This document shows, in pieces, positions 5,319 to 51,175 of a stretch of DNA of 54,261 nt. Position 1 is the stretch's first letter, and each line of letters starts with the position of its first letter. Below the pieces are notes generated by a model. The model was given only the letters and a program-made list of their open reading frames with translations. It made no database searches and was not told the DNA's origin. Source of the DNA: a virus (Duplodnaviria; Caudoviricetes); IMG/VR virus record IMGVR_UViG_3300048822_000004, positions 1 to 54,261 of that record; one strand, written 5' to 3'. The position numbers were made by a program, and so were the translations under genes.

Positions 5319-7112
5319 ATGCTTTGTCGTTTAATAGCTCCTGCATGGGCTACTAATCTTAAAAAAACTATGGAAGGTCAGTTCTCAGAAACTGACCTCA
5401 AGTCATTAAACGAACAAGGCTATAACGTTTATTTTTGGCCGAACCCTCCGGAAACTCCGGATAGTTCAAAACCCGTTGATGGTAGCCAAATAACATCTTT
5501 TTCTCAAGTCTTCGTAGATATGGATTTAAAAGATAAAGTCTACCCTAGTAAAGATGCATTCATTGAGACTATTTTAGCTGCTGATTTGGCCCCCACAAGG
5601 ATAATAGATTCTGGTCATGGTGTACATGTTTACTGGCGCGTTACTAATCTTGACGCCATGAGTTATTTAAGGTTTCAGCGCAGATTATGTAGACTATTTA
5701 ACACAGATGAAGCGGTAAGTAAGATAGCACAACTCATGCGTTTGCCAGGTACTTTTAACACTAAATCTAAGGAATACGTGCCTTGTACATTAGTGGCAGA
5801 AACAGATAATATATACACCGCAGAGGAATTCGATAAGCTGCTTCCCTCCATTACTAAAGAAGATGATACGTATTGCAAGCAGCACCACGATAAGACCTAC
5901 AACATAGGTGGTATTACCGAAATCTCAGAAGAAATGCCAGCTAAGTTTGGTGAGTTGATTTTAAATAATGCAGAAGTAAAGTCTTTATGGACTGGACCTA
6001 CCGATGATCGCAGTAGTAATGATTTTAGGTTAGGTCACTTAATGTTCGCAGCTGGTTTTACTAATCAAGAGGCTATGGCTGTGTTAGCTCAATCCGCCAA
6101 GGCTCTACAGCGCGCCCCGGTACATAGGGTAAGCTATGCTAAAAACATAGTAGATAAAATATGGACATTTGAAGGCGCTACAGAAACAGAGAAGATCCTA
6201 ACTCCTACAAGCGTACGTGATATCCTTATGAGACCACGGTCCGAGAATGGCGTACGTATCCGGACTTGGAAATACATAGACGATACTGAATACGGTTTTC
6301 GCACAGGACAAGTACTAGGACTTGTAGCAGGCTCTGGGGTCGGTAAAACTACAATGGCTTTAAATATATTCCTGGGCTTCGTTGAAAGCAATCCAGACTT
6401 AGATCATTTCTTTATTCCTTTAGAGCAGCCCGACAGAGAAATAGCTGATCGCTGGGCTTTGATGTGCAACGGCAAAGAACATCTCTATGATAAGGTACAT
6501 GTAATAAGTAACTATGACGATAACGGCGCTTTTAAGGACCTATCATTGGATGACATTAAAGCTCAGATAAATAATTTTATTGAGACTACAGGAAAGAAAG
6601 TCGGATGCGTCGTTATTGACCACATAGGTGTATTGTGTAACAATAACAAATTAGGCATGGAAGAAGGATTGAAAGGAATTTGTAAGGCCATGAAGGGGTT
6701 TGCTATGGAAACCAAAACATTCCTTATTATGCAATCCCAGACTTCTAGAGAAAAAGCGGGTATAGGCGATCTTGAAATCAATAAAGATGCAGCTTTTGGT
6801 ACAAGTGCATTTGAAAACTTTTGTGATTATCTCATTACTTTATGGCAGCCTTTGAAGCGAGTCTACTCTAAAGGCGCGCCTACCATACTTAGCTATAAGT
6901 TTTGTAAGATACGCCATAAAAAACAAGGCAAGGACGTAATACAAGAGGATACGCCTTACTCAGTCTTTTTTGATCCTGACACACAACTCATAAGGGAGCT
7001 TACAGAAATGGAAGATAAGAGTTTGAGTTACTGGGTAGGTCAAGCCACAGCCAGGCGCAAACTAGACCGAAAGACAGACGTGGTAAACTACACCTCTATC
7101 AGGTGGACATAA
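5319..7112 (+). CDS. Primase-helicase (RepB/AEP-type primase plus SF4 DnaB-like helicase)
   Basis: FVDMD, DSGHGVHVYW, MRLPG.FNTK; Walker A GSGVGKT, VVIDH, QSQ. Confidence 0.88.
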   Translation: MLCRLIAPAWATNLKKTMEGQFSETDLKSLNEQGYNVYFWPNPPETPDSSKPVDGSQITSFSQVFVDMDLKDKVYPSKDAFIETILAADLAPTRIIDSGHGVHVYWRVTNLDAMSYLRFQRRLCRLFNTDEAVSKIAQLMRLPGTFNTKSKEYVPCTLVAETDNIYTAEEFDKLLPSITKEDDTYCKQHHDKTYNIGGITEISEEMPAKFGELILNNAEVKSLWTGPTDDRSSNDFRLGHLMFAAGFTNQEAMAVLAQSAKALQRAPVHRVSYAKNIVDKIWTFEGATETEKILTPTSVRDILMRPRSENGVRIRTWKYIDDTEYGFRTGQVLGLVAGSGVGKTTMALNIFLGFVESNPDLDHFFIPLEQPDREIADRWALMCNGKEHLYDKVHVISNYDDNGAFKDLSLDDIKAQINNFIETTGKKVGCVVIDHIGVLCNNNKLGMEEGLKGICKAMKGFAMETKTFLIMQSQTSREKAGIGDLEINKDAAFGTSAFENFCDYLITLWQPLKRVYSKGAPTILSYKFCKIRHKKQGKDVIQEDTPYSVFFDPDTQLIRELTEMEDKSLSYWVGQATARRKLDRKTDVVNYTSIRWT

Positions 7113-11006: not shown

Positions 11007-11262
11007 GTTTTTTAAGTCCAAGAAAGTAAACCTAAATCCCGCTAAGCCAGAGCCGCGTAAGCTAGAAGATATTACGAAAGAGCTTAACAATGAATGCTGG
11101 GCTTTAGGTCAACTAGAATATCAGATCTACGTTCTTCAGCAAGAAGCAGAACGAAAAAACAAGAAAATCCAAGAGCTTAACTACGAAGGAGCTAGCCGTA
11201 AAGAATTAGACTCTAAAGCCGCCGCTGACGCCCCTAAGCAAGAGGTGTCGAATGGGAACTAA
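10999..11262 (+). CDS. Coiled-coil hypothetical protein
   Basis: RBS AAGGAG; heptad pattern. Confidence 0.7.
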   Translation: MSKFFKSKKVNLNPAKPEPRKLEDITKELNNECWALGQLEYQIYVLQQEAERKNKKIQELNYEGASRKELDSKAAADAPKQEVSNGN

Positions 11263-11479
11263 AATCAAGGAAGCAACATTGTCAGGGCCTATTCATACGA
11301 TTAAATCAGGTCATATCAAGAAAGAGCTTAGTAACCAAAATTCACCTACCCATAAGGCGGTAGGCATGGAGCTTAAGTCCATTGAAGGCGGCACTTTCGT
11401 AGAGCTTACTGTACAGCACTCAAAAGAGAAAATCCTTGTGCCTTATACAGACTTTCGCAATTTAGTCCCCGGTGAATAA
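11252..11479 (+). CDS. Hypothetical protein
   Basis: RBS GAGGTG; coupled to neighbours. Confidence 0.65.
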   Translation: MGTKIKEATLSGPIHTIKSGHIKKELSNQNSPTHKAVGMELKSIEGGTFVELTVQHSKEKILVPYTDFRNLVPGE

Positions 11480-13514: not shown

Positions 13515-13539
13515 TCAATTAAATACTATAGCACACGTT

Positions 13540-13554
13540 GGACTGTATCGCAAT
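13540..13554 (+). promoter_or_regulatory. Putative late promoter / activator site GGACTGTATCGCAAT (copy 1)
   Basis: 15-mer repeated at five intergenic sites; this one heads the head-gene operon. Confidence 0.75.
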
Positions 13555-13575
13555 ATAGAACATTTGAGGTGAGCT

Positions 13576-15992: not shown

Positions 15993-16099
15993 TGGATGAT
16001 GATTCGTTATATCTCATCCTAGCATTCGTATGCTTTTGTATTGGCTTCATAGGATTACTTAAAACAATAGAGCCTAATAATGATTCTAAAAACGATTAA
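15992..16099 (+). CDS. 35-aa membrane peptide (not in ORF track)
   Basis: TAATG coupling; MDDDSLYLILAFVCFCIGFIGLLK... Confidence 0.4.
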   Translation: MDDDSLYLILAFVCFCIGFIGLLKTIEPNNDSKND

Positions 16100-16343
16100 A
16101 GACCTTGATAAGCTCATAAAGCTCTGCAAGAAGCAGGGAATCTCCGGCATCAAGGTAGGAAACGTAGAGTTTAACCTAGAGCCTATTAAGCCGTCTAGCA
16201 TAGAGCCTATATCACCTGAGGCTACTGTCAAGGTTCCTAAGTTCAATGGAAGCCTAGAACCTGACAAAATCGACAGCGATCAGCTCACAGACGAGCAACT
16301 AATGTATTACTCAGTTAAGCCAGAGCCTGGAGCGGATAGCTAA
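16080..16343 (+). CDS. Hypothetical protein upstream of the portal
   Basis: Coupled to the portal gene (TAATG). Confidence 0.65.
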   Translation: MILKTIKDLDKLIKLCKKQGISGIKVGNVEFNLEPIKPSSIEPISPEATVKVPKFNGSLEPDKIDSDQLTDEQLMYYSVKPEPGADS

Positions 16344-18256: not shown

Positions 18257-19312
18257 ATGAAAGTAACACCCGTAGCATCACCATTAGCTGTTCAGCAAAC
18301 CAGTACTAACACAGCAGCGGTATCGGACGCCAAAGCCCGTGCCGTAGCAATACTGTCAGGTAAAGCCGCACCGACCCAAGGACAAGCCCAGGAAACACCT
18401 GTCAGTAACCCTAATCAAGTCTCAGCTGAGGAATTATCGGCTATACGCGCTCCTACAGAAGCCCCCGCTACCCAGGTAGAGGCCCAGGCTGAAGCACCTC
18501 AAGGCGAGGCTGATAAGCATCCAGAAGTACCAGAGAAAAAAGACCCAAAGGCAAGTCAGGAATGGGCTAGACTTGCCCGCCAAGAACGTATCCTGCGCCA
18601 GCGCGCCAAGGAACAGGATCAGAAGTTCCGACAACGTGAAGAAGCAATTAAGGCCAGAGAGGCCGAAGCCGCCTCTAAAGCCGATTTATATCAGAAAGGG
18701 TATATTTCAGTTGAGGAGCTAAAGAGAGATCTATTAAGCGCTACTGAGAAGGCAGGACTTAGTTACGATGAAGTAGCTCAGCAGATGTTGAACACTACTA
18801 AAATCGATCCTAGACTTCAGTCTCATATAGACCGCTTACAAGCCAAAATCGACAGCTTAGAGAAAGCCACTATTGAAGGCAACGAAAGAGCCACGAAACA
18901 ACAACAGGACTCCTACAACGCAGCTGTTAAACAAATCAAGACTGATGTAGCTAACTTAGTGAAAACAGACCCGAATTTCGAAACTGTTGCTAAGACTAAC
19001 AGTGTCAACGACGTCGTAGAACTCATTACTAGGACTTATGAGAAAGACGGCATCCTGTTGACAGTGGAAGAAGCCGCTCAGGAAGTCGAAAATTATCTTA
19101 TCGATGAAGCATTGAAATTAACTCGTATCGAAAAAATTAAGCGCAAGCTCCAGCCTATGGCCAATAGTTCTGGTGAGAAGACAGCGCAATCCGCAGCTAC
19201 AAAAGGGGCCGCTCAACCCCAAATGAAAACCTTGACTAACGCCGTATCTAGTACTCGGAAGCTGAGTGCCAGGGAACGCGCCTTGTTAGCATTTCGAGGT
19301 GAGCTTAAATAG
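18257..19312 (+). CDS. Capsid scaffolding protein
   Basis: Helical/coiled-coil, directly upstream of the capsid gene. Confidence 0.75.
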   Translation: MKVTPVASPLAVQQTSTNTAAVSDAKARAVAILSGKAAPTQGQAQETPVSNPNQVSAEELSAIRAPTEAPATQVEAQAEAPQGEADKHPEVPEKKDPKASQEWARLARQERILRQRAKEQDQKFRQREEAIKAREAEAASKADLYQKGYISVEELKRDLLSATEKAGLSYDEVAQQMLNTTKIDPRLQSHIDRLQAKIDSLEKATIEGNERATKQQQDSYNAAVKQIKTDVANLVKTDPNFETVAKTNSVNDVVELITRTYEKDGILLTVEEAAQEVENYLIDEALKLTRIEKIKRKLQPMANSSGEKTAQSAATKGAAQPQMKTLTNAVSSTRKLSARERALLAFRGELK

Positions 19313-19319
19313 TATAGCC

Positions 19320-19340
19320 GTATACTGAAATTCAGTATAC
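19320..19340. repeat. 21-bp palindrome in the capsid leader
   Basis: GTATACTGAA-A-TTCAGTATAC. Confidence 0.7.
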
Positions 19341-19403
19341 CTATATACCATGCTTGGCATAGGGTTAAGTATTGGAAATAATTAAATAAATAAAGGAAAT
19401 ACA

Positions 19404-20705
19404 ATGGCAGCAGTATATGCTAATAGTAGCAACCAAATCGCTGCGTTAAAAGAATTGTATACCGACGATAAAGAGTATATGAAGGACCTTGTTTACAAGG
19501 AAAATCCCTTCCTAGCTCTTGTACCTAAGGATGAAAGCCCGGACGGCTTTGCGGGAAAATATATTCCCGTACCGCTCGAATACGGCAATCCTATGGGTCG
19601 TGCGCATACATTTGCTAACGCACAGAACCAACAAACCGCGACTTCACTCGTAAGCTATTTCGTTTACGTCATTCAAGATTACCAACTCGTGACTATCACG
19701 AACCTCTTGATGGAGCAAACGAAAACTAATGCAGGTGCATTCGTAGATGCAGCAAAGCTCCAAATGGATGGTGGCTTTCGCAATATCACGAATAACATCG
19801 CATTCGAACTCTTCGGTGATGGTACAGCGACTCGCGGTACTTCAACTGCGGCTTCGACACAAACCGGTGGCGTAGCAGTAGGCGGAGTAGTATTGCCTCT
19901 CACGAACGCGCAACAAATCGTGCAGTTCGAAGTAGGTCAACTACTCGTGGCTTCTGCAACTCCTGGCGGCGCACCTTCAGCAGACACCGTACTTGTTACG
20001 GCTGTGGATCGTGCAAACGGTATCGTATCTGGTACAGCTTCGGCAGCAGTTCTGTCGGCTAACTGGGCAATCGGTACTGGTAACGCCTACCTCTCGGTAT
20101 CTGGAGATATCCCGACTACTGGAGCGACGAATACAGGCTCATTCCTGGCATTGTCAGGTCTTGCAGCATGGATTCCGATCGCTACTCCGGCAGTAACGGA
20201 TAACTTCTGGGGTGTTAACCGTAGTGCAGACCCGACCCGTCTTGCAGGCCTGCGTTACAACGCAACTGCTCAGACGATCGAGGAAGGCATCACAAACGCA
20301 CTAGCATTCACTAACCGTGAAGGCGGTAAACCAGACCTTTGCATTATGGACTTTGCTTCATATGCAGCTCTAGTTAACGCTCTCGGCGCGAAAGTCCAAT
20401 ACGTTCAAGTCAACCACGATGAAGTAGAAGTAGCATTCGAAGGTATTACGTTCCAATCAGCATATGGTCGCGTAACGATCCTTGCTGACCGCTCGTGCCC
20501 TCCGACTACTGCATATCTATTGACGATGGCGACTTGGAAGCTTCGTTCATTAGGCAAAGTGCCTCATATTTTGACATATGGCATGGAAGGCCTCGAAGGT
20601 CTAAGAGTCGGAAACGCCGATGCTTTGGAGATTCGTATTGGCTATTACGGAAACCTAATCTGTAGTGCCCCGGGCTTCAATTGTGTGGTACAATTAAGTT
20701 CTTAG
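19404..20705 (+). CDS. Major capsid protein
   Basis: 433 aa after the scaffold; LKELY, NPFLALVPK, P..YG, GDG; strongly biased codon usage; followed by a terminator. Confidence 0.88.
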   Translation: MAAVYANSSNQIAALKELYTDDKEYMKDLVYKENPFLALVPKDESPDGFAGKYIPVPLEYGNPMGRAHTFANAQNQQTATSLVSYFVYVIQDYQLVTITNLLMEQTKTNAGAFVDAAKLQMDGGFRNITNNIAFELFGDGTATRGTSTAASTQTGGVAVGGVVLPLTNAQQIVQFEVGQLLVASATPGGAPSADTVLVTAVDRANGIVSGTASAAVLSANWAIGTGNAYLSVSGDIPTTGATNTGSFLALSGLAAWIPIATPAVTDNFWGVNRSADPTRLAGLRYNATAQTIEEGITNALAFTNREGGKPDLCIMDFASYAALVNALGAKVQYVQVNHDEVEVAFEGITFQSAYGRVTILADRSCPPTTAYLLTMATWKLRSLGKVPHILTYGMEGLEGLRVGNADALEIRIGYYGNLICSAPGFNCVVQLSS

Positions 20706-20750
20706 CTAGTATTGCAAGAATTATAAAAAAAGTTCTTGCATAATAGCCTG

Positions 20751-20786
20751 ACTCCTGTTATCTTAATTGGTAACAGGAGTTTTTTT
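20751..20786 (+). terminator. Intrinsic terminator after the capsid gene; stem also covers the RBS of the next gene
   Basis: ACTCCTGTTA/TAACAGGAGT 10-bp stem plus T-tract. Confidence 0.75.
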
Positions 20787-21224
20787 ATGTTTAAAATATG
20801 TAATAAATGTTCTAAAGAAAAACCTTTAACAGAATTTTTTAAAGATAAATCTAACAAAACAGACGGCTATTATTCTATTTGTAAGGACTGTAAAACTAAA
20901 TCAACTTTAGCTTATCGAGCTAAAAATAAAGATTTATATAATGCTAAAATGCGTGCCTATAGAAAAATTAACTACCAAGCAGAACGATTATACCGATATA
21001 AGTTAACAGTAGCCCAGCATCAGGCAATGCTCGCAGAACAAAACCACGTCTGTGCTATCTGCAAGTGCCCGCCTAAAGGCAAACGACCTTTAGTAGTTGA
21101 TCATAGACATTCGGACGGTAAAGTCCGAGGATTACTATGTTATGGCTGTAATAGAGCACTACATGTATTAGAATCGATCGATCTGCTTCAAAAAGCACAA
21201 GACTACCTTAAGAAATATGAATAA
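20787..21224 (+). CDS. Endonuclease VII-type homing endonuclease with N-terminal Zn finger
   Basis: CNKC...CKDC; Q...CAIC...VDH.H..GKVRGLLC..CN. Confidence 0.85.
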   Translation: MFKICNKCSKEKPLTEFFKDKSNKTDGYYSICKDCKTKSTLAYRAKNKDLYNAKMRAYRKINYQAERLYRYKLTVAQHQAMLAEQNHVCAICKCPPKGKRPLVVDHRHSDGKVRGLLCYGCNRALHVLESIDLLQKAQDYLKKYE

Positions 21225-21244
21225 CCTTGACTTAATTTAACCCC

Positions 21245-21279
21245 TAAAGTTTGACAGAAATCCTCCGATAAGTTAATAT
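21245..21279 (+). promoter_or_regulatory. Interleaved sigma28 and sigma70 promoters
   Basis: TAAAGTTT-N11-TCCGATAA and TTGACA-N17-TAATAT. Confidence 0.75.
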
Positions 21280-21323
21280 AAATTTATGATACATGCAATT
21301 TGGGCATTTAGCGAGGTGTTTAA

Positions 21324-22046
21324 ATGAGCGACTCAGTATTACTATTAGGCGACTGCCTAGAATTAATGAAAGACATTCCAGACAAATCAATAGACCTTGT
21401 GCTGACTGATCCGCCTTACGGAACTACAGCTTGTAAATGGGATAGTGTTATTCCTTTTGAACCAATGTGGGCTGAATTAAAACGAGTAAGAAAAGACAAT
21501 GCGGCTATTTGTTTGTTTGGGAGTGAGCCATTTAGTTCTTCTTTGAGATTTAGCAATAGGGACGAATATAGGTACTGTTGGACTTGGAAAAAGCAACGCG
21601 CTGGGGGCTTCCCAATGGCTAATAAAAGGCCGCTTAAAAATATCGAACTGATATCTGTTTTTTCATTTAAACAATCAAAGTATTACCCTCAAGGACTTGT
21701 TGATTGCCTTATAGATCAACGACGAAAATCAAAATTATGTGCTTTCGTTAAATCAATTAAAAATCATGGCGGTATTCAGACAAAAACTAATTACCCCAAA
21801 ATGCTTTTAGAGGGCTTTAAACAAGATTTTAAAACGGTTCACCCGACTCAAAAGCCAGTCGCCCTACTCGAATACCTAATCAAAACCTACACGCTTGAAG
21901 GCAACACAGTCTTAGACTTCACTATGGGCAGCGGATCGACTGGCGTGGCTTGTAAAAACCTAGGCCGCAAATTCATAGGCATTGAGAAAGACGAAAACTA
22001 CTTTAAAATCGCTGAAAAACGCATAGAAGAAGCAGGTAATAAATGA
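21324..22046 (+). CDS. Orphan N6-A/N4-C DNA methyltransferase (beta class)
   Basis: TDPPYG, HPTQKP, DFTMGSGSTG. Confidence 0.93.
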   Translation: MSDSVLLLGDCLELMKDIPDKSIDLVLTDPPYGTTACKWDSVIPFEPMWAELKRVRKDNAAICLFGSEPFSSSLRFSNRDEYRYCWTWKKQRAGGFPMANKRPLKNIELISVFSFKQSKYYPQGLVDCLIDQRRKSKLCAFVKSIKNHGGIQTKTNYPKMLLEGFKQDFKTVHPTQKPVALLEYLIKTYTLEGNTVLDFTMGSGSTGVACKNLGRKFIGIEKDENYFKIAEKRIEEAGNK

Positions 22047-22124
22047 AATTAGGAGTATCCCTCATCCCTCAGGCCGTAATCGCCAAATCAATGATAAAAA
22101 ATTTATAGACAATAAGCTCAAGGA

Positions 22125-22355
22125 ATGCAGAAAATGGCTGAATTCAAAGTAGACGATACGGTAATAATGGTACACGCGGATAACTTATCACTTGTGGCTA
22201 GAGATCTTATTGGCGTTCCTCACCAAGTCATAGGAGTGATAGGAGATTGCTTATTAATTGACCCTCAAGATAAAAACCAAGGCTGGTTTGCATGGAGATT
22301 CATAAAAGCTACGGAATTGTCTCAACTCGAGAAAATAATTTACGATATCCCCTAA
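22125..22355 (+). CDS. Small SH3-like protein with LEKIIYDI tag
   Basis: FKVDDTV...GWFAWRF; ends LSQLEKIIYDIP. Confidence 0.7.
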   Translation: MQKMAEFKVDDTVIMVHADNLSLVARDLIGVPHQVIGVIGDCLLIDPQDKNQGWFAWRFIKATELSQLEKIIYDIP

Positions 22356-22387
22356 AGTTTGCTTTAGAACTGCCGATAAGCTATTAT
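22353..22387 (+). promoter_or_regulatory. Consensus sigma28 promoter interleaved with a sigma70 promoter
   Basis: TAAAGTTT-N11-GCCGATAA (perfect) and TTGCTT-N17-TATTAT. Confidence 0.82.
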
Positions 22388-22409
22388 AACAAGAAACCAA
22401 GGAGTAATA

Positions 22410-23513
22410 ATGATTATCAAGGATTTTAAAGAGAGTCTTCAGTATCTAACAAAAGCAGAACTAACCCCGTTCGTGTGGGGACATGCCGGGATTGGCAAGA
22501 CTGAGAGCATTAAGCAGTGGGCAGTAGAGAAAGGATATAAATTCTTTCCTTTCTACTTAGGTACGATGTCTGATACAGGCGATATACTAGGGCTTGCAGA
22601 GTTTACGAAACGAGCCAAGGGTGGTAAATCCACTGATTTCGCGCCTCCTGGATGGCTTCTTGATATGATAGACTACTGCAATGAAAACCCTGATTCTGGC
22701 GCAGTAGTCTTCCTAGATGAGTTTAACCGCGCTAGGAAAGATATCATGAACGGTATGTTCTCGTTTGCACTGGATAAGCGCTTCCATACTATACAGTTAC
22801 CTAAGAACTGTCATGTAATCGCTGCTGGTAATCCTCCTACGGATGAGTACTGCACTACTGATGTTGATGAAGCCGCTCTTATGGCTCGTTTCGTACATAT
22901 CAAGCTTGAGCCTTCGATTCAAGAATGGGTAGAGTACGCTAAAGACAGAAGCTTAGATAGTAATCTCATAGGTTTTATTCAAGATCAGCCTAATCTATTA
23001 GAAGACAAGCGATCAGAGTTTCTGCTGCCTATCAAGGTGGATCGTCGCGCCTACTCACGATTAGATAAGTTATTCAAGCTAAATACACCGGCGCATCTCA
23101 TGGAAAGCCTTATGCCTGGCATTATCGGTCTTGAAAGAACTATTGCTTATAAGCAATATCTCAAGGAAATCGATAAGCCGCTTACAGGAGAGCAAGTCCT
23201 TCGCCATGAAAGACCTGATCTCATCGAGAAGTGGAGTAATTCCGATAACGTAGCGGCTTCATTTCTTAACATCACCTGTGATAGCCTTGTCGAGGTACTT
23301 AATAAAAGAGATGCAGCTAAAGACCTCTTAAAGGCAGATGAAAAGAGTAATCTCATGTGGTTCTTGTCTGCAGCTCCTAAGGATATCTCCTATCGAGTTA
23401 TATACACGTTAGTGACCTCTAATAACTCATTATTTAAGAACTTCTTTACTGATGAGAAGTACGAGAAACAAATCGCGGAGCTTACGTTAGCCGCTAAAGG
23501 AAAGACTAAATAA
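22410..23513 (+). CDS. MoxR-like AAA+ ATPase
   Basis: GHAGIGKT, FLDEFNRA, AAGNP, AL.ARF. Confidence 0.9.
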   Translation: MIIKDFKESLQYLTKAELTPFVWGHAGIGKTESIKQWAVEKGYKFFPFYLGTMSDTGDILGLAEFTKRAKGGKSTDFAPPGWLLDMIDYCNENPDSGAVVFLDEFNRARKDIMNGMFSFALDKRFHTIQLPKNCHVIAAGNPPTDEYCTTDVDEAALMARFVHIKLEPSIQEWVEYAKDRSLDSNLIGFIQDQPNLLEDKRSEFLLPIKVDRRAYSRLDKLFKLNTPAHLMESLMPGIIGLERTIAYKQYLKEIDKPLTGEQVLRHERPDLIEKWSNSDNVAASFLNITCDSLVEVLNKRDAAKDLLKADEKSNLMWFLSAAPKDISYRVIYTLVTSNNSLFKNFFTDEKYEKQIAELTLAAKGKTK

Positions 23514-24673
23514 TGGAATTCAAGAATAAAGATGTCGTAAGCCAAGCCATAGTAAATCTATTCGAATCGGAAAGATTCTATGCTGAGCTGATATGTCAGA
23601 TGCGTAGATTCGTATCTGATAAGATACGAACGGCAGGGGTTTGTGTTAAAGATCAAATCGAACTCCACATAAACCCTGAGTTCTTCGAAAGTCTTACATT
23701 ACAAGAACGTGTATCTGTTCTTAAGCATGAATGCGAGCACATCCTTAGAGACCATATCGGCAGGGCTAAGGAACTAGCCCCAGATATTTACGATAATAAA
23801 AAGAAGGACTTAGAAGACAATATCATTAACAACATGAAGCACAAGACTTTAAATATTTCAATGGATTGTGCCATCAACGGCAATATGACTAACCTACCAG
23901 AAGGAGGAGTATTTCCTAAGCAATTCGATCTTGAGAATGGCCAAACCATGGAATGGTATCTAGCGCAGCTAAAAGACAATGAAAAAGCAAAGCAGCTCAT
24001 GAAATTCGATGATCATGAGCTTTGGGGCGAATCAGATGGTGATAAGGAAATCCTTAAAGAGAAGGTTCGTCAAGCCGTTAATAAGGCTGCTAAAAGTACT
24101 CGTGCGGCAGGTAAAATGACCGCAAACAATGAGCTACTCGTATCAGAACTCAACAAAGCCGTGGTGAATTGGCGCCAACAGCTCAAACGGTTCGCTGCAC
24201 GTACTATCGAGACTGCCCTAGACACTAGTAAAAAGAAAAGGAATCGCCGCTACGGTATATTATTTCCGGGTACTATAAAAACAGAAAGTCTTCATATAGG
24301 AGTTGCTATAGATACTTCTGGTAGCGTTTCTGATGAAAGTTTGAAACAATTCATGAGTGAAATCGGCAATATAGCTAAATATGCCAAAGTAACGGTTATT
24401 GAAGCAGACACAGAGATCAAGAACAGTTATATTTATGATCCTAAAAAGAAATACAGAGTCTCAGGCAGAGGCGGAACTGCTTACAAACCTGCCTTCGACT
24501 TCTTCAACGATAAAAATAATGAAGTAGACGCCATGATTTACTTTGGGGATATGGATTGTTATGATACAGAGGCTTTAATTAAGCCTAAATACCCTGTGTT
24601 ATGGGCTATAGTAGGAGGTCAAAATCCTCCAGCTAATTTCGGAGCACAAATCAGAATAGAGGTTAAAGATTAA
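23513..24673 (+). CDS. Metallopeptidase-like plus vWA domain protein (DUF2201-like), AAA+ partner
   Basis: HECEH (HExxH), D.AIN, MIDAS DTSGS, GRGGT, FGD. Confidence 0.88.
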   Translation: MEFKNKDVVSQAIVNLFESERFYAELICQMRRFVSDKIRTAGVCVKDQIELHINPEFFESLTLQERVSVLKHECEHILRDHIGRAKELAPDIYDNKKKDLEDNIINNMKHKTLNISMDCAINGNMTNLPEGGVFPKQFDLENGQTMEWYLAQLKDNEKAKQLMKFDDHELWGESDGDKEILKEKVRQAVNKAAKSTRAAGKMTANNELLVSELNKAVVNWRQQLKRFAARTIETALDTSKKKRNRRYGILFPGTIKTESLHIGVAIDTSGSVSDESLKQFMSEIGNIAKYAKVTVIEADTEIKNSYIYDPKKKYRVSGRGGTAYKPAFDFFNDKNNEVDAMIYFGDMDCYDTEALIKPKYPVLWAIVGGQNPPANFGAQIRIEVKD

Positions 24674-25191
24674 TGAGTGACAATAAAAAAATTGATTATT
24701 TCGAAAAGATAGGAAAACTACTCAATAAATCGCCAAAACCGATATATATTGCTTTTGCGCTGTACTGCGCTAGAGACCAACTCCATAATATTAAAGATAA
24801 AAACATCTACAATGAATGCCATAAAGCCTTAGCTATTACAGAGGCTTTTATTAAAGGCCAAGCCACTCAATCAGAAATAGAAGCAGCCTACAGCGCGGCC
24901 TACAGCGCGGCCAGCAGCTCGGCCTACAGCTCGGCCCACACGGCCCACGCGGCCAACAGCGCGGCCCACGCGGCCAGCAGCGCGGCCCACGCGGCACACA
25001 GCGCGGCCTACAGCGCGGCCTACAGCGCGGCCTACGCGGCCTACGTGGCCTACGTGGCCTACGCGGCCTACGCGGCCCACGCGGCCCACGCGGCCTATAA
25101 CAATAAATTAGAAGAGTATTTTGAAAAATTAGAGGATATGCTACGAAATCTACACAGAATTGAAAAAATAGTGTTTAATATATGCGATTAA
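24673..25191 (+). CDS. Ala-rich repeat protein, copy 1, with tag IEKIVFNI
   Basis: AAYS/AAH repeats; near-identical paralog at 42963..43466. Confidence 0.8.
   Translation: MSDNKKIDYFEKIGKLLNKSPKPIYIAFALYCARDQLHNIKDKNIYNECHKALAITEAFIKGQATQSEIEAAYSAAYSAASSSAYSSAHTAHAANSAAHAASSAAHAAHSAAYSAAYSAAYAAYVAYVAYAAYAAHAAHAAYNNKLEEYFEKLEDMLRNLHRIEKIVFNICD
24883..25098 (+). repeat. GC-rich 9/12-bp tandem repeats
   Basis: GCGGCC(T/C)AC and GCGGCCTACAGC units. Confidence 0.9.
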
Positions 25192-25811
25192 TTTTAATAC
25201 TCATATTCATACCTAGCGTATCGATTGCAAAACTAAGAGTTGCAGTACTAGACACTGGCGTAGATACAGAGATAACAAACGCTCCTTTGTGCTCTAAAGC
25301 ATCTCCTGACTCTAGCAATATAAAGCACGGGACTTCAATAGTTGATTTAATTGCTAAAAATGCAGGTAAAGCTGATTATTGCATAGAGTCTTATAGAATA
25401 TATACCAATAAATGGGATAAAAAGGCTTATTTCAATGTTCTTAGGTATTTACTAAAGAATCCACCAGATATCATTAACCTCAGTATTCAAGGCACAGGAG
25501 AAAGCCCCACAGAGACTAAACTCATTAAACAACTCCTCAACAAAGGCGTGACGATATTAGTAGCGGCTGGTAACTATGGAGAAGTCCTGTCTAAAAAGTC
25601 TTGTAATGTATACCCGGCTTGTGCTGATAACAGGATAATAGTTGTAGGTACATACTCGCCTAGCAGCGATAAAGGCGACAGGATTAACATACTTACCCAT
25701 AAAGACAGTGGGTGCGTTGGAGCTTATTGTTTGTCAGGAACTAGTCAAGCCACTGCAATAGAGACTGGCCGTTTCATTAATTTCTTGAGTACTAAGGAAA
25801 ACGCCAAGTAA
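25182..25811 (+). CDS. Exported subtilisin-like (S8) serine protease
   Basis: Signal peptide; VAVLDTG, HGT, AAGN, GTSQAT. Confidence 0.88.
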   Translation: MRLILILIFIPSVSIAKLRVAVLDTGVDTEITNAPLCSKASPDSSNIKHGTSIVDLIAKNAGKADYCIESYRIYTNKWDKKAYFNVLRYLLKNPPDIINLSIQGTGESPTETKLIKQLLNKGVTILVAAGNYGEVLSKKSCNVYPACADNRIIVVGTYSPSSDKGDRINILTHKDSGCVGAYCLSGTSQATAIETGRFINFLSTKENAK

Positions 25812-26037
25812 ACACTATTTTACGATCTACTATGGTTTGTCCAACAAAAGCCCCGCCTACCAAAAAGAATTTTTCATCGTTAGGCACGAGTTTACTCATA
25901 TCATTCAATGTCTTATTAATGCCGTCATTAGCGCCTGTGTAGCGAGCAAAGGCATCTGCAGACTTCTGTACAGATTTTCCGTTACTAGCAAGTCCTGCTG
26001 TGAATAGCATTATAAACAGTAAGGCATTAGATTCCAA
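25792..26037 (-). CDS. Hypothetical, possibly exported protein
   Basis: Hydrophobic N-terminus; start uncertain. Confidence 0.4.
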   Translation of the reverse strand: MESNALLFIMLFTAGLASNGKSVQKSADAFARYTGANDGINKTLNDMSKLVPNDEKFFLVGGAFVGQTIVDRKIVFTWRFP

Positions 26038-26239
26038 GAATCACCATGCCTGGATAGTCCACAGAATTGACAGGACGATCAGACCCGTCAAACACCACAA
26101 GTATGTCTGGCATACCTCTACCCGAGTATTCGATTTTAATGATTTCGCCTTCTCTATGGCTATCCCTATCGTAAACCCTAATACCAGGATAAAGAGAGTT
26201 AGGATCGACAGCACGCAATAACCTATTATTCTCATACAT
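26027..26239 (-). CDS. Small SH3/KOW-like protein
   Basis: PGIRVYD....EGEIIKI......ILVVFD; ATG 26239 lies just after a sigma70 promoter. Confidence 0.5.
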   Translation of the reverse strand: MYENNRLLRAVDPNSLYPGIRVYDRDSHREGEIIKIEYSGRGMPDILVVFDGSDRPVNSVDYPGMVILGI

Positions 26240-26245
26240 ATCTAT

Positions 26246-26273
26246 ATGATACACGAGTTGAAAAAAAAGTCAA
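26246..26273 (-). promoter_or_regulatory. sigma70-type promoter
   Basis: TTGACT-N16-TATCAT on the minus strand. Confidence 0.55.
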
Positions 26274-26280
26274 ATCCTGC

Positions 26281-26307
26281 TAAAGTAATTCCTAGGTCGA
26301 CCGATAA
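26281..26307 (+). promoter_or_regulatory. sigma28-type promoter
   Basis: TAAAGTAA-N11-ACCGATAA, followed by RBS GGAGGT. Confidence 0.7.
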
Positions 26308-26324
26308 GTACTATAGGAGGTAAC

Positions 26325-26555
26325 ATGGAATTCAATAAAACGTATAGTAATTGGGTAATGCATAATAAAGAGCATCTCAATATCAGAGAGGTAGAAACAC
26401 ACGGCAAGGATTTAAAGGACTTCTTAGCCAACGCCATGATTTATATAGAGACTTGGCACGGCGGGGAAGGTCCAGATTACAGTGTCGATGATCTTTCTAG
26501 TAAAGACTATGACATGCTTGTAAAAGAATTCACTGAATACTTGGAGGGAACATGA
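26325..26555 (+). CDS. Hypothetical acidic protein
   Basis: Strong RBS; first gene after the sigma28 promoter. Confidence 0.7.
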   Translation: MEFNKTYSNWVMHNKEHLNIREVETHGKDLKDFLANAMIYIETWHGGEGPDYSVDDLSSKDYDMLVKEFTEYLEGT

Positions 26556-26755
26556 GAGCAAGTAACGTAGTGAAATTAAACACTAAAATCAAACCAGACG
26601 ATAGCGGTGTCTATAGAACTAAGCATTTCTATAGAGATCAATACACTGCTATGTTTCAGCATATGAATAACATGATTAAGACATACGGTAAAGGCCAAGT
26701 AGCTATAATGATCCGCGATCTCATCGCATCGGGAGGATTGAATGGTAACGATTAA
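26552..26755 (+). CDS. Hypothetical protein
   Basis: GGAGG RBS, ATGA overlap. Confidence 0.65.
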   Translation: MRASNVVKLNTKIKPDDSGVYRTKHFYRDQYTAMFQHMNNMIKTYGKGQVAIMIRDLIASGGLNGND

Positions 26756-26927
26756 AAAGATTGAAACACCTAACTACGTAATTTTGTTAGAAGAAACTGA
26801 GGACTGTCGTTACATAGTAAGATATAAGAGATCTTCAATGGAAGAATACTCATACTTTAGCTTCCAGGATTACAAGTTCGCCAGCGAGATGTTCGACTAT
26901 AATTTAATAGCATTGGAGGGCCATTGA
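26742..26927 (+). CDS. Hypothetical protein
   Basis: GGAGG RBS. Confidence 0.65.
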   Translation: MVTIKKIETPNYVILLEETEDCRYIVRYKRSSMEEYSYFSFQDYKFASEMFDYNLIALEGH

Positions 26928-27020
26928 AAATCAAGAAGGGTCAAATCTACATGGATTTTAATTTCAGAGATATCTGAAAAAATAACTGAATTAGAGAGGA
27001 TTATATGGGAAATAGACTGA
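26924..27020 (+). pseudogene. Frameshifted or deleted remnant of a tag-bearing small gene
   Basis: GGAGG plus TTG gives MKIKKGQIYMDFNFRDI*; the +1 frame ends ITELERIIWEID*. Confidence 0.55.
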
Positions 27021-27081
27021 ATTATGACCAAAAAGTATATATTTTAGCTATTCTAGCCTGTTTTTTAGCTATAGGTGTGAT

Positions 27082-27306
27082 GTGGATGAAGTAAAGACCG
27101 GACAGCTCAGAATGGACCGCATATTTGGTTTATATATGGTAGGAAAAAAAGTCAACGGAGAATTCAATATATTGTGGAAATATACCGGCTATAAACAAAT
27201 AAAAGATCAACAGGTCTTTACTTTTAGTCCTCATACGCTGAGTTTAGATAAGCTCGTAGTTGATGAAGTGACATTACTAGAAAAAATCATATACGATATC
27301 CTATAA
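27082..27306 (+). CDS. Small protein with LEKIIYDI tag
   Basis: RBS AGGTG; ends VTLLEKIIYDIL. Confidence 0.7.
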   Translation: MDEVKTGQLRMDRIFGLYMVGKKVNGEFNILWKYTGYKQIKDQQVFTFSPHTLSLDKLVVDEVTLLEKIIYDIL

Positions 27307-27322
27307 CCAATATAATGACTCT

Positions 27323-27337
27323 GGACTGTATCGCAAT
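27323..27337 (+). promoter_or_regulatory. Late motif copy 2
   Basis: GGACTGTATCGCAAT before the tail operon. Confidence 0.75.
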
Positions 27338-27350
27338 TACAGAACCAGGG

Positions 27351-27436
27351 ATTACCTCTGTTCTTCCCGCTATGCTAGCCACAGCTAACGGTGAGTAGGA
27401 CTAACTACCCTACATAACGTGGCAAATAGAGGTAAT
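27351..27436 (+). promoter_or_regulatory. Structured leader sequestering the RBS of 27438
   Basis: ATTACCTCTGTT pairs with AATAGAGGTAAT; inner stems GCCAC/GTGGC and GTAGG/CCTAC. Confidence 0.6.
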
Positions 27437-27437
27437 T

Positions 27438-28115
27438 ATGGCTAACAGGAACTATCCTAACGGCGGACGTCTTTACATGCGTCACGTCAAACCCGCAAAC
27501 ATTACATGCTCTTTCATCGTAGATAGTACGAACGGCAATGGCTTTGGTATTAGAAGCCTTAAAGGCCCAGGCCTTGCCAATGTATTTATGCACACTACGG
27601 CTACCCCTGCTGGTGGTAACCCGAATCCTGCTTCAGGTCTTATCATGGTTCAACTCCAAGACAATTATTTTGCAAGCATTACAGGCGGTAACACGCTTGG
27701 TTCGCCTGTCTCAGGCACTCCCCTTACGTCTGTAACATCTGGAAATGCCTACACAATCGTAAGCGTTGGTACTACTACTCAAGCCCAGTGGCAAGCCTTA
27801 GGCCTTCCTACAGGCATGGTGCCAAACGTAGGTTCTACATTCATCGCAACAACTACTGGCGCTATCCCAGGCACGGGTTCTGTAGAAGCTCCTCTTGCAA
27901 CAGGTACTGGTATTACCAATATTGAGATTATCGGCGACCCTAACCAAACAATCGCTACTACTAATCCTCCCCAGCCCGGCTTTGGCGCTACTATTATCAT
28001 GCAATGCATGAAAAACGGAGTATTGACAGCACCGGCTAATGGCACTGTGATTAGTCTGAGCTTCTTAATGAACGAAAGCTCTGTTAGTGCAGGCAGTCCT
28101 ACACCAGGGAACTAA
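27438..28115 (+). CDS. Virion structural protein
   Basis: T/G/P-rich beta protein, first gene of a late block. Confidence 0.65.
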   Translation: MANRNYPNGGRLYMRHVKPANITCSFIVDSTNGNGFGIRSLKGPGLANVFMHTTATPAGGNPNPASGLIMVQLQDNYFASITGGNTLGSPVSGTPLTSVTSGNAYTIVSVGTTTQAQWQALGLPTGMVPNVGSTFIATTTGAIPGTGSVEAPLATGTGITNIEIIGDPNQTIATTNPPQPGFGATIIMQCMKNGVLTAPANGTVISLSFLMNESSVSAGSPTPGN

Positions 28116-28145
28116 GTCTTAAGTCTCTGTTATTAAAGGAGATTT

Positions 28146-29216
28146 ATGGCAGGAGCACCAGGAACGCCTACAAATTTTATAGCCCAGACTGCAAATATGC
28201 AGAATCTCGTCAGCTGGAATCTTTCAGCTGGCGCGACTTCCTACATAGTACAGCGTAGTCTAGACAATGTTACATATAACACTATCGCAACTATTACTGG
28301 CAGTCCTCTAGCAACGTCTTATCTTGATACAGCCGTTACATCAGGCACCCAGTACTGGTATCAGGTAGCATCTTCTAGTACGGGCGGTACAAGCCCTTAC
28401 ACAATACCGCAGACAGTGACTCCAGCACCTACAGGCGAATGGAGTCTAGGCGCACTTCGCTTAGCAGCTCAGCAACGTGCCGACAGAGTTAATAGTCAGT
28501 TCGTAACTACGGCTGAGTGGAATTCCTACATAAAACAAGCAATGTTTGAGCTATACGACCTTCTCGTTACGTGCTATGAAGATTACTTCTTAGCAACACC
28601 ACTTCAGTTCATGGCTGACGGCGTTACGTTTCAGTTCCCACTCCCTAATGGCGTAAACAGTTATTTCAATGGTATTACGCTACAGCCTGGGTATATCGCT
28701 CCACCATTCTATAAAATCATGGGAGTAGACCTTGCCCTTAATAATGCCAATAATTCGTACGTTACGATTAATAAGTTTAATTTTATTGATAGAAATCGTT
28801 TCGTTTACCCTAACACGGCCTCTACTATATACGGCGTTTTTAACCTTCAGTATCGCGTACTTGGCAACGTCATTGAGTTTATACCTACTCCAGCTGGCGG
28901 CCAAGGAATAAGGATTTGGTATATCCCTAGAATGACTGAGCTTTTACAAGACACCGATACTACGAATTTCGGTATTTCAGGCTGGCAAGAATATGTAATC
29001 GTACGTGCGGCTAAGTATGCGTTAGATAAGGAAGAATCAGATACTACTATCCTTACACAGGAAATCGCATTTCTCAAAGCCCGTATAGAAGAAACTGCTA
29101 GTAACAGAGATGCCGGTCAACCCGACAGGATTAGTGATACGCGCAGCGGTAATGGCAACGGCTGGGGGACTGGGGGCTTTGGCTCAGGTTACAACGGCGG
29201 CACAGGTGGTTACTGA
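28146..29216 (+). CDS. Head-tail adaptor-like protein with N-terminal FN3 domain
   Basis: FN3 pattern W...GATSY.V.RS...YLDT.V..G.QYWYQV; adaptor-like C-terminal part (QRAD, EW..YI, F.PTP, IWY.P). Confidence 0.7.
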   Translation: MAGAPGTPTNFIAQTANMQNLVSWNLSAGATSYIVQRSLDNVTYNTIATITGSPLATSYLDTAVTSGTQYWYQVASSSTGGTSPYTIPQTVTPAPTGEWSLGALRLAAQQRADRVNSQFVTTAEWNSYIKQAMFELYDLLVTCYEDYFLATPLQFMADGVTFQFPLPNGVNSYFNGITLQPGYIAPPFYKIMGVDLALNNANNSYVTINKFNFIDRNRFVYPNTASTIYGVFNLQYRVLGNVIEFIPTPAGGQGIRIWYIPRMTELLQDTDTTNFGISGWQEYVIVRAAKYALDKEESDTTILTQEIAFLKARIEETASNRDAGQPDRISDTRSGNGNGWGTGGFGSGYNGGTGGY

Positions 29217-36020: not shown

Positions 36021-36021
36021 T

Positions 36022-36036
36022 GGACTGTATCGCAAT
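36022..36036 (+). promoter_or_regulatory. Late motif copy 3
   Basis: GGACTGTATCGCAAT before the ejection genes. Confidence 0.75.
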
Positions 36037-36077
36037 ATAGACGACTTGAAGACACTAGTCATATCTAGAGGTGTATC

Positions 36078-42862: not shown

Positions 42863-42873
42863 TGGCTTTAAAT

Positions 42874-42933
42874 ATAATAGCTTATCTGCGTTTAAATGTC
42901 AATTAGGACTGTATCACAATATGAACCCTAGAG
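42874..42933. repeat. 60-bp direct repeat, copy 1 (divergent promoter cassette; late motif variant GGACTGTATCACAAT)
   Basis: Two mismatches to 43482..43541; holds minus-strand TTGACA-N17-TATTAT. Confidence 0.9.
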
Positions 42934-42962: not shown

Positions 42963-43466
42963 TTACTCATTGATGTTATAAATTATTCTTTCAATTCTGT
43001 GTAGATTTCGTAGCATATCCTCTAATTTTTCATAATACTCTTTTAATTTATTGCCTCTGGCCACGTAGGCCGCGTAGGCCGCGTAGGCCACGTAGGCCAC
43101 GTAGGCCGCGTGGGCCGCGCTGTAGGCCGCGCTGCTGGCCGCGCTGTAGGCCGCGCTGTGTGCCGCGTGGGCCGCGCTGCTGGCCGCGTAGGCCGCGTGG
43201 GCCGCGCTGCTGGCCGTGCTGCTGGCCGCGCTGTAGGCCGCGCTGTGTGCCGCGCTGTAGGCTGCTTCTATTTCTGATTGAGTGGCTTGGCCTTTAATAA
43301 AAGCCTCTGTAATAGCTAGGGCTTTATGGCATTTATTGTAGATGTTTTTATCTTTAATATTATGGAGTTGGTCTCTAGCGCAGTACAGCGCAAAAGCAAC
43401 ATATATTGGTTTTGGCGATTTATTGAGTAGGTTTTCTATTTCTTCGAAATAATCAATTTTTGCCAT
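42963..43466 (-). CDS. Ala-rich repeat protein, copy 2, with tag IERIIYNI
   Basis: Paralog of 24673..25191; RBS GGAGG; own sigma70 promoter. Confidence 0.8.
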   Translation of the reverse strand: MAKIDYFEEIENLLNKSPKPIYVAFALYCARDQLHNIKDKNIYNKCHKALAITEAFIKGQATQSEIEAAYSAAHSAAYSAASSTASSAAHAAYAASSAAHAAHSAAYSAASSAAYSAAHAAYVAYVAYAAYAAYVARGNKLKEYYEKLEDMLRNLHRIERIIYNINE

Positions 43467-43481
43467 TAATCCTCCAAAAAC

Positions 43482-43541
43482 ATAATAGCTTATCTGCGTT
43501 TAAATGTCAAATAGGACTGTATCGCAATATGAACCCTAGAG
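43482..43541. repeat. 60-bp direct repeat, copy 2 (minus-strand sigma70 promoter plus late motif at 43514..43528)
   Basis: ATAATAGCTTATCTGCGTTTAAATGTCAAATAGGACTGTATCGCAATATGAACCCTAGAG. Confidence 0.9.
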
Positions 43542-51121: not shown

Positions 51122-51157
51122 CTAGTGTGTAAAAGCCGAAGCCGGTACAGGGTTCAT
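51122..51157 (-). pseudogene. 11-codon remnant MNPVPASAFTH
   Basis: Matches the C-terminus PVPAFAFTH of 51727..52395; has an RBS. Confidence 0.6.
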
Positions 51158-51175
51158 AGATACTCCTAGAATTAA
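51153..51175. repeat. 23-bp direct repeat (second copy at 51708..51730)
   Basis: TTCATAGATACTCCTAGAATTAA identical at both sites. Confidence 0.9.

Follow-up and report, generated by a model that had tools for sequence, protein, structure and literature searches.

The viral record IMGVR_UViG_3300048822_000004 (Caudoviricetes; 54,261 bp, rated 100% complete, with linear ends) was analyzed over its whole length, hereafter called the window. The phage has a GC content of 42.7%, and word matches in metatranscriptomes place it in peat. Between its capsid gene and its tail module lies an accessory island, a 6.6-kb block at 20.7 to 27.3 kb, in which three boxes resembling promoters of the sigma-28 (FliA) class precede a DNA methyltransferase gene, an operon that begins with a MoxR-like AAA+ ATPase gene, and a run of small open reading frames (ORFs). 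The boxes, here called P1, P2, and P3 and scored with a position weight matrix (PWM), and the other features of the island are as follows.

20750 to 20791, plus strand: terminator-like hairpin (13-bp stem and T-run) just 3′ of the capsid gene, found by terminator scan and sequence reading
21245 to 21271, plus strand: sigma-28-type box P1, with -35 element TAAAGTTT (21245 to 21252), an 11-nt spacer, and -10 element TCCGATAA (21264 to 21271); 34.9 bits
21324 to 22046, plus strand: DNA methyltransferase gene (N6_N4_Mtase, E = 3e-32), the first gene after P1
22125 to 22355, plus strand: 76-amino-acid ORF without assigned function, with its stop codon within the P2 -35 element
22353 to 22379, plus strand: sigma-28-type box P2, TAAAGTTT-N11-GCCGATAA, a perfect canonical match; 33.0 bits
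22410 to 23513, plus strand: MoxR-like AAA+ ATPase, first gene of the P2 operon (22410 to 25811)
23513 to 24673, plus strand: DUF2201 metallopeptidase-like/vWA protein, P2 operon
24673 to 25191, plus strand: protein of 4-residue repeats, P2 operon
25182 to 25811, plus strand: S8 subtilase-like protein, P2 operon
26281 to 26307, plus strand: sigma-28-type box P3, TAAAGTAA-N11-ACCGATAA; 30.5 bits
26325 to 26555, 26552 to 26755, 26742 to 26927, and 27082 to 27306, plus strand: four small ORFs after P3, without assigned function
27322 to 27345, plus strand: phage-specific repeated motif TGGACTGTATCGCAAT..., a candidate late promoter that would restart the tail module and marks the downstream edge of the island

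The canonical sigma-28/FliA consensus of Escherichia coli and Salmonella is TAAAGTTT-N11-GCCGATAA. The three strings that an initial annotation had read as FliA promoters, at 21245, 22353, and 26281, are present exactly as written, and the assignment holds for both elements and for the spacing: each box has a -35 block TAAA(GTTT), a -10 block (G)CCGATAA with its CGA core, exactly 11 nt between the two 8-mers, and a position oriented toward a gene. The pattern TAAAGT-N14-CCGATAA matched three times in the window, each time on the plus strand, and not once in 100 dinucleotide-preserving shuffles. When up to two mismatches were allowed, nine matches were found versus 1.66 ± 1.27 expected; the six additional two-mismatch matches all lie within coding sequence and look like chance occurrences. 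CCGATAA by itself is not enriched in the window (10 versus 5.94 expected), and the signal therefore resides in the combination of the two blocks. P1 and P2 are 75% alike over 44 nt, flanks included.

All three boxes are intergenic, lie on the coding strand, and are followed by a Shine-Dalgarno sequence and an ATG, in agreement with the annotated position just ahead of ribosome-binding sites (RBSs). The distance from the last A of CCGATAA to the ATG is 52 nt at P1, 30 nt at P2, and 17 nt at P3, where AGGAGG and the ATG (26325) both fall within those 17 nt. Judged from the promoter class, a host sigma-28, if the host has one, would start transcription about 7 nt after CCGATAA, so that the predicted transcripts would begin at about 21278 (P1), 22386 (P2), and 26314 (P3).

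Boxes of the same form are found in related phages. Searching viral contigs with the capsid protein yielded 163 confirmed relatives, of which 80 were kept as loci. Across these 80 loci, the strict pattern matched nine times on the coding strand (at eight loci) and never on the other strand, and the reversed control gave no match. At the spacing of the box, 13 forward matches were found in the relatives, versus 1 when the spacer was one nucleotide shorter and 3 when it was one longer. A PWM iterated from the instances returned 40 matches of ≥14 bits (35 on the plus strand and 5 on the minus strand), compared with 6 in shuffled sequence. The 80 loci, two full genomes, and the relative L086 together yielded 21 distinct instances scoring ≥24 bits, one of which (L060, in coding sequence) is probably false. 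In the -35 block, T1, A3, A4, and G5 are each present in 21/21 instances; in the -10 block, all 21 have CCGAT and 19 of them continue with AA; and the -35 type is TAAAG in 18/21 and TTAAG in 3/21, with 15 nt to CCGATA. Since the instances were picked with a matrix derived from the same motif, the conservation of these seeded columns is partly circular. Columns that had not been seeded are conserved as well, namely the C before TAAAG (18/21), T6 (20/21), and the G after CCGATAA (19/21). The box of the related phages takes the form c-TAAAGTtt-N11-gCCGATAAG over the 21 instances, its invariant columns being the two sigma-28 blocks and its spacer varying. An RBS and start codon follow in 17/21 instances (identified with a simple regular expression), and 8/21 have a compact geometry, with the start codon 17 to 18 nt after CCGATAA and AGGAGG between the two. 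If a downstream TAnnnT hexamer set the start in these compact instances, transcription would begin within or past the Shine-Dalgarno sequence; the geometry therefore fits transcription from about 7 nt after CCGATAA.

The boxes head an accessory island, as the initial annotation had proposed. The block has no counterpart in three distant relatives (L087, L088, and L089), in which the capsid gene adjoins homologs of the tail genes at 27438 and 28146, so the island is inserted relative to them. The capsid-tail gap varies in length and gene content among complete relatives. L086, with 88% capsid identity, also has an island, in which a MoxR homolog and two sigma-28-type boxes are found, and two of the four small ORFs after P3 have homologs in the relatives G722 and G737. 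Two ORFs of the island that are otherwise unrelated, 22125 to 22355 (...LEKIIYDIP) and 27082 to 27306, end in the same ...LEKIIYDI(P/L) tail. Both stop at or just before a promoter element, and the same tail precedes the MoxR promoter in G737; it may be a conserved cassette-junction sequence that is read through as protein. Upstream of P3, a sigma-70-like TTGACT-16-TATCAT (26246 to 26273, minus strand) points away from the box toward the minus-strand ORFs 26027 to 26254 and 25792 to 26037, and the gap at 26236 to 26324 may be a divergent promoter region.

Both edges of the island carry candidate transcription signals. The hairpin at 20750 to 20791 would, as read from its sequence, shield the island from transcription arriving from the capsid gene, and the true start of the EndoVII-like gene likely lies directly after it. 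Only two terminator-like sites were found in 20500 to 27600 (at 20552 and 20750), both upstream of the island units; the same scan found none downstream of them. At the other edge, the TGGACTGTATCGCAAT... motif is one of several copies that stand at the starts of late operons (13539 to 13560, 27322 to 27345, 36021 to 36042, and 43514 to 43535, with a variant at 42906 to 42927); another copy, at 1562, lies inside the SbcC-like ORF. The complete relatives G708, G712, and G714 have different, genome-specific motifs at the same syntenic sites, a pattern which implies a putative phage transcription factor or polymerase that co-evolves with the motif. No RNA polymerase or sigma family was detected in the phage, and a regular-expression search of eight large ORFs without assigned function found nothing canonical for a DxDGD-type polymerase motif.

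Which factor reads the sigma-28-type boxes was approached through the gene content of the phages. A search for Sigma70_r2 turned up nothing in the window at E ≤ 1 or in the records of 49 relatives at E ≤ 0.1, and searches of the window with Pfam region 4 and region 4_2 gave only a subthreshold match (20.3 bits), to the helix-turn-helix of an HNH endonuclease. Comparison of 71 window ORFs with 7 full relatives revealed no sigma-sized ORF that tracks the motif. Three small ORFs (77 to 358, 11252 to 11479, and 16080 to 16343) are present in motif-positive genomes and not clearly in the four motif-negative ones, a co-occurrence confounded by relatedness, as the motif-positive genomes are also the closest relatives. 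Because there is no detectable phage gene of the sigma-70 family, a host factor of the sigma-28 family is the best candidate reader. In addition, the box is the same across phages, viral contigs, and bacterial chromosomes, whereas the late motif drifts from genome to genome; the first behavior would be expected of a conserved cellular reader and the second of a co-evolving phage factor, and this contrast is our main argument for a cellular reader of the box.

On this basis, we consider it probable, with moderate confidence, that the boxes are functional sigma-28-class promoters that drive insulated accessory units of an apparently virulent peat phage and are read by a host sigma factor of the FliA/WhiG family. 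Each box would head its own transcription unit, namely the methyltransferase gene, the operon for the MoxR-like AAA+ ATPase, the vWA protein, the repeat protein, and the S8-like protein, and the run of small ORFs. The capsid-terminal hairpin would cut the island off from late transcription, which would restart for the tail module at the phage-specific motif; the island genes, if insulated in this way, would depend on the sigma-28-type boxes. The host sigma-28-family holoenzyme would read the boxes; the activity of this alternative sigma in an infected cell, and not the late program of the phage, would then determine when the accessory genes are switched on.

Several observations weigh against this reading. 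The box is patchily distributed, being found with ≤1 mismatch in the whole records of 15/49 relatives and in 5/19 of those that are ≥90% complete. No box stands directly upstream of the MoxR orthologs of G722, G714, and the G001 contig.

In G737 (L135), a complete relative, the box is kept at the orthologous MoxR gene with its -10 element altered (GCCGAATA), and a divergent pair of boxes lies in the early region (about 6724 to 7009), so the box is not limited to the capsid-tail gap. One of these early boxes heads a homolog of a small membrane-like ORF that stands in the window at about 54123, there behind a sigma-70-like TTGAAA-N17-TGATAGAGT. The comparison of the MoxR upstream regions and of the G737 early region indicates, therefore, that promoters of this class turn over.

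The available RNA data cannot decide the question either: they are contigs assembled from four peat metatranscriptome runs covering parts of 19000 to 29000, in which DNA carry-over is possible and which cannot show transcription starts, strand, level, or sigma-28 dependence. Long contigs cover the capsid gene (19042 to 20570, two runs) and the tail genes, the capsid contigs ending at 20570 or earlier. The tail contigs start at 27356 (X10 and X15), 27360 (X12), and 27373 (X6), 11 to 28 nt past the late motif at 27322; two of them bear adaptor-like loose ends, and the position is a weak hint of an RNA 5′ end just past the motif. Short contigs lie within the island at 20865 to 21015, 21116 to 21266, 22442 to 22592, 22834 to 22984, 23016 to 23217, 23950 to 24100, 24672 to 24873, 26325 to 26594, 26438 to 26588, 26651 to 26801, and 26717 to 26867; stretches of the island that no contig covers carry no information.

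The evidence on the host adds points on both sides. No cultured relatives were found by searches with the major capsid protein (MCP) and the portal protein. A host call from cultured phages was rejected: TerL is 24.5% identical to that of T5-like Vibrio phages and PolA 28% identical to that of Clostridium phages, which are unrelated. A megablast search with 20000 to 28000 gave no match. A capsid search of one genome per prokaryote species found four relatives, of which the closest two are free phage contigs (32.9 and 37.0 kb, 88% and 65% MCP identity) in two metagenome-assembled genomes (MAGs) of Candidatus Saccharibacteria. FliA/WhiG scored over the cut-off in 0/301 genomes of the Saccharibacteria class, the MAGs encode one RpoD-sized sigma and small sigmas of extracytoplasmic function (ECF) size, and no flagellin was found in G001 or G002. 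The strict box occurs 37 times in the class versus 18 for the reversed control, with 2 of the 37 on the phage contig, and these matches form no regulon. If the Saccharibacteria binning is right, host FliA is therefore not the reader. Contigs of 38, 51, and 52% GC make the G001 bin a compositional mixture, to which the phage contig is tied by binning only.

The third capsid relative (63%) lies inside a 360-kb contig of an Acidobacteriaceae MAG (G003), and the fourth (39%) lies inside a 1-Mb contig of an Alphaproteobacteria MAG. The region of G003:C6 from about 155 to 191 kb (L088 and L116 to L119) is an integrated element of about 36 kb, with a GC content of 45 to 50% between flanks of about 60% on both sides. 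It encodes portal, capsid, and tail homologs and lacks homologs of PolA, primase, and SbcCD; its capsid gene is split into two frames, and the element is either a prophage remnant or a temperate relative with sequencing errors. FliA/WhiG scored over the cut-off in 97/151 genomes of the class to which this MAG belongs, where the strict box occurs 40 times versus 19 in the control. The genome sets include unpublished genomes (G249 among the 301; G401, G410, and G379 in the FliA set of the Acidobacteriaceae class, with G401 also in the box count of that class).

The raw enrichment of the box is alike in both classes (37 versus 18 and 40 versus 19), a point against the Acidobacteriaceae link; only the extended letters separate the two candidate host classes. 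Positions 7 and 8 are TT in 18/40 matches of the Acidobacteriaceae class compared with 2/35 nonphage matches of the Saccharibacteria class, as counted by eye. Among 12 Acidobacteriae sites that were fetched, the C before TAAAG is present in 9 and the G after CCGATAA in 8. Acidobacteriae boxes also recur before orthologs, including a Fer2_4 protein in 4/10 ORFs tested; others precede an HD-GYP protein, a regulator of the LuxR type, and an S8 peptidase. These letters and recurrences speak for the main reading, in which the consensus would be used in a class where FliA/WhiG is common. A gene-sharing link through the S8 peptidase was rejected, as the S8-like protein of the phage is 28% identical over only 61 residues to the Acidobacteriae S8 protein behind a sigma-28-type site. 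The Acidobacteriaceae link itself is weak, given that it comes from one distant relative (63% MCP identity, structural genes only, split MCP), and the GC content of the phage, 42.7%, compares with about 60% in an Acidobacteriaceae host. The frequency of MCP-bearing prophages is uninformative about the host, with 1/301 and 1/401 genomes positive and only the seed genome found in each class. Taken by itself, the promoter class favors a host with FliA/WhiG and disfavors Saccharibacteria, and the low GC content of the phage argues against Acidobacteriaceae.

These host data bear directly on the possibility that an unrecognized specificity factor of the phage, either a divergent sigma or a protein that binds RNA polymerase and mimics sigma-28, reads the boxes in a host that may lack FliA. 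Such a factor would be compatible with the Saccharibacteria MAGs as the closest matches, from a class with FliA in none of its 301 genomes, and the genome-specific late motif suggests that the phage has some transcription specificity of its own; the three small ORFs that track the motif, and the many ORFs without a family match, offer places where the gene could reside. We nevertheless regard this explanation as unlikely. Neither the window nor the 49 relatives contain a Sigma70_r2 match, no sigma-sized ORF co-occurs with the motif, and the co-occurrence of the small ORFs is confounded by relatedness. Moreover, the box is the cellular sigma-28 consensus and is the same across divergent phages and viral contigs, a constancy that a private factor would not lead one to expect; the late motif of the phage does drift, and the mixed G001 bin (38 to 52% GC) loosens the tie to Saccharibacteria. 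A specific version, in which the phage infects a FliA-less, flagella-less cell of the Saccharibacteria (CPR) and a phage-encoded sigma mimic without sigma-70 similarity reads the boxes, and maybe the late motif too, seems to us very improbable.

The initial annotation had gone further than a sigma-28 assignment. It read P1 and P2 as interleaved with sigma-70 promoters and proposed that the methyltransferase, the AAA+/vWA pair, and the tagged proteins are expressed both when the host is motile and nonreplicating and when it grows. The two overlapping elements are:

21251 to 21279, plus strand: sigma-70-like TTGACA-17-TAATAT overlapping P1; 10 of 12 positions, the best match of the region and the only claimed overlay that passes the scan
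22359 to 22387, plus strand: TTGCTT-17-TATTAT overlapping P2; fails the 4-of-6 rule of the scan (TTGCTT = 3/6)

Both pairs of hexamers are thus present as they had been read, but only the first passes the scan, and P3 has no sigma-70 -35 element. The leaders of P1 (52 nt) and P2 (30 nt) have room for a second start. A homologous subset of instances (W1, L007, L086, and G722) keeps TAAAGTTTGAC(A/T), and the MoxR promoter of G737 keeps a composite form, TTGACT-17-TATAGT, while its sigma-28 -10 element is altered. Interleaving with sigma-70 promoters did not hold up as a feature of the class. Sigma-70-like matches in 20500 to 27600 occur at chance density (21 versus 19.3 ± 4.9 expected), and over the 21 instances a -35 hexamer of ≥4/6 is present in 7, a TAnnnT -10 hexamer in 11, and both in 4. 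The TAAAGTTTGAC(A/T) instances have spacer letters in common and seem to be related by descent, which means that they are not independent, and in the 8/21 compact instances a TAnnnT-set start would lie within or beyond the Shine-Dalgarno sequence, as described above. The annotation's remark that FliA-type promoters are prominent among Bdellovibrio attack-phase genes is correct in itself, and such promoters dominate these genes (PMC3627812). The link to this phage does not follow: none of the four assembly matches is Bdellovibrio, and the published consensus, TTAAG-N16-CCGATA, differs in a -35 letter and in the stated spacing from the TAAAG-N15-CCGATA of the phages (18/21) (PMC3627812). The two-state expression scheme is consequently unsupported, with the overlay in 4/21 instances and the second site failing the scan, and the full dual model, in which the host would be Bdellovibrio-like, is distinctly unlikely. 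Dual sigma-28/sigma-70 use at P1 and P2 is possible as a local arrangement, at which the MoxR promoter of G737 hints, but it does not characterize the class.

If the boxes were ordinary sigma-70 promoters, the TAAAGT and CCGATAAG blocks would be regulator sites or incidental. A TAnnnT hexamer does follow CCGATAAG in 11/21 instances, and the Saccharibacteria considered as candidate hosts carry, apart from sigmas of ECF size, essentially a single primary sigma. This explanation appears highly unlikely, since a -35 hexamer of ≥4/6 is found in only 7/21 instances, conservation falls on the sigma-28 blocks, spaced as for sigma-28, the Shine-Dalgarno geometry disfavors a TAnnnT-set start in 8/21, and two blocks around a variable 11-nt spacer are typical of sigma recognition and form no palindromic operator. 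To the notion that the boxes are not promoters but mark the boundaries of a mosaic, as cassette-junction or recombination sequences, we give hardly any credence: they do stand, patchily distributed, at the edges of variable cassettes, P1 and P2 share 44 nt including flanks, upstream ORFs end in ...LEKIIYDI beside promoter elements in the window and in G737, and endonuclease VII/HNH genes flank the region, but only two short blocks are conserved, the spacer between them being free, the boxes are always gene-oriented with an RBS and start at short, fixed distances, and the same box precedes Acidobacteriae chromosomal genes and many unrelated viral ORFs.

The preferred reading, promoters of the sigma-28 class, can be set in a wider context, as the canonical box is enriched in viral contigs at large. 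At least 120 viral-contig stretches (IMG/VR loci L165 to L284) carry the full canonical TAAAGTTT-N11-GCCGATAA, compared with 40 for the reversed control, an enrichment of at least threefold. These stretches hold at least 135 matches, and at least 11 loci have two or more, with three to four copies on some contigs; the control matches are all single. Among the matches listed, an RBS, a start codon, and an ORF of ≥40 amino acids follow within 80 nt in 70/135, versus 3/40 in the control. These numbers suggest that canonical sigma-28 boxes before phage genes are common in viral contigs, a feature rarely discussed in the literature searched, and the finding may generalize. A limited literature search on sigma-28 phage promoters and FliA-dependent morons returned no matching paper, from which we make no claim of absence in print.

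The kind of promoter is already known, and the phage is a new, fairly clean member. Like the class 3 flagellar promoters read by FliA, SigD, and WhiG, the phage boxes have both blocks, the 11-nt spacing, and an invariant CGA core, and they lie a short way upstream of genes; unlike them, they precede a methyltransferase gene, a MoxR/vWA operon, and small ORFs instead of motility genes, and they have an additional conserved C before TAAAG and G after CCGATAA. A phage-origin gene under the host motility sigma has a precedent in flxA of the E. coli Qin cryptic prophage, which is listed as sigma-F (FliA) dependent, with ykfB of CP4-6 as a candidate (PMC1935009). Each of these is a lone gene of a defective prophage whose host is known, whereas here several units belong to an apparently virulent, uncultured phage, and the promoter class recurs across the lineage. 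Morons are described as independent transcription units inserted between conserved genes (PMC3594210). The island units resemble them in having their own promoter-like boxes, in their insertion between conserved structural genes, and in their presence or absence among relatives; they differ in that no terminator-like site was found downstream of them and in their alternative-sigma promoter type, and the classical logic of moron expression from a prophage does not apply to a phage in which no lysogeny genes were detected. The attack-phase regulon of Bdellovibrio bacteriovorus likewise uses a sigma-28-type box well beyond flagellar genes (PMC3627812); the phages differ from it in the -35 type (TTAAG in only 3/21 instances), in the N15 spacing, and in having no tie to that host.

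If a host sigma-28 reads the boxes, an apparently lytic environmental phage would couple a methyltransferase and a MoxR/vWA module to the motility or developmental sigma of its host, which would be a simple route to accessory expression that depends on host physiology. The promoter class would also serve as a host-range clue, one that speaks against hosts lacking FliA/WhiG, among them the Saccharibacteria into whose MAGs the closest contigs were binned.

The remainder of the window is organized as follows.

0.3 to 11 kb: replication and recombination genes (SbcC-like, endonuclease VII, HNH endonuclease, metallophosphoesterase, primase-helicase, PolA; SbcCD)
12 to 20.7 kb: large terminase, portal, and major capsid genes
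19404 to 20705: major capsid (MCP) gene
27.4 to 49.8 kb: tail genes
49.8 to 53.9 kb, minus strand: helicase, PA14/collagen protein, and DUF5675

The Phage_integrase and Resolvase families gave no match at E ≤ 0.1 in the window. Because of this result and because it carries its own replication module, the phage looks virulent, although the absence of two families is no proof. No tRNAs were found in the window. Three nuclease genes of the endonuclease VII/HNH type are present (1956 to 2270, 2234 to 2722, and 20736 to 21224), the last of which forms the upstream edge of the island, straight after the capsid terminator; the three may be homing-type elements tied to mosaicism.

Repeats occur at several places in the genome. 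A 12-nt unit is present in about 18 tandem copies at 51132 to 51454, inside the minus-strand ORF 51172 to 51462. A 64-nt direct repeat with 95% identity (42870 to 42933 and 43478 to 43541), which includes the late motif, flanks the minus-strand ORF 42963 to 43466. The 12-nt tandem repeats of this ORF are the reverse complement of those in the plus-strand island ORF 24673 to 25191. Judged by their 4-residue repeats rich in Ala, Tyr, His, and Ser, the two ORFs are putative paralogs, and one copy of the pair looks like a recent insertion.

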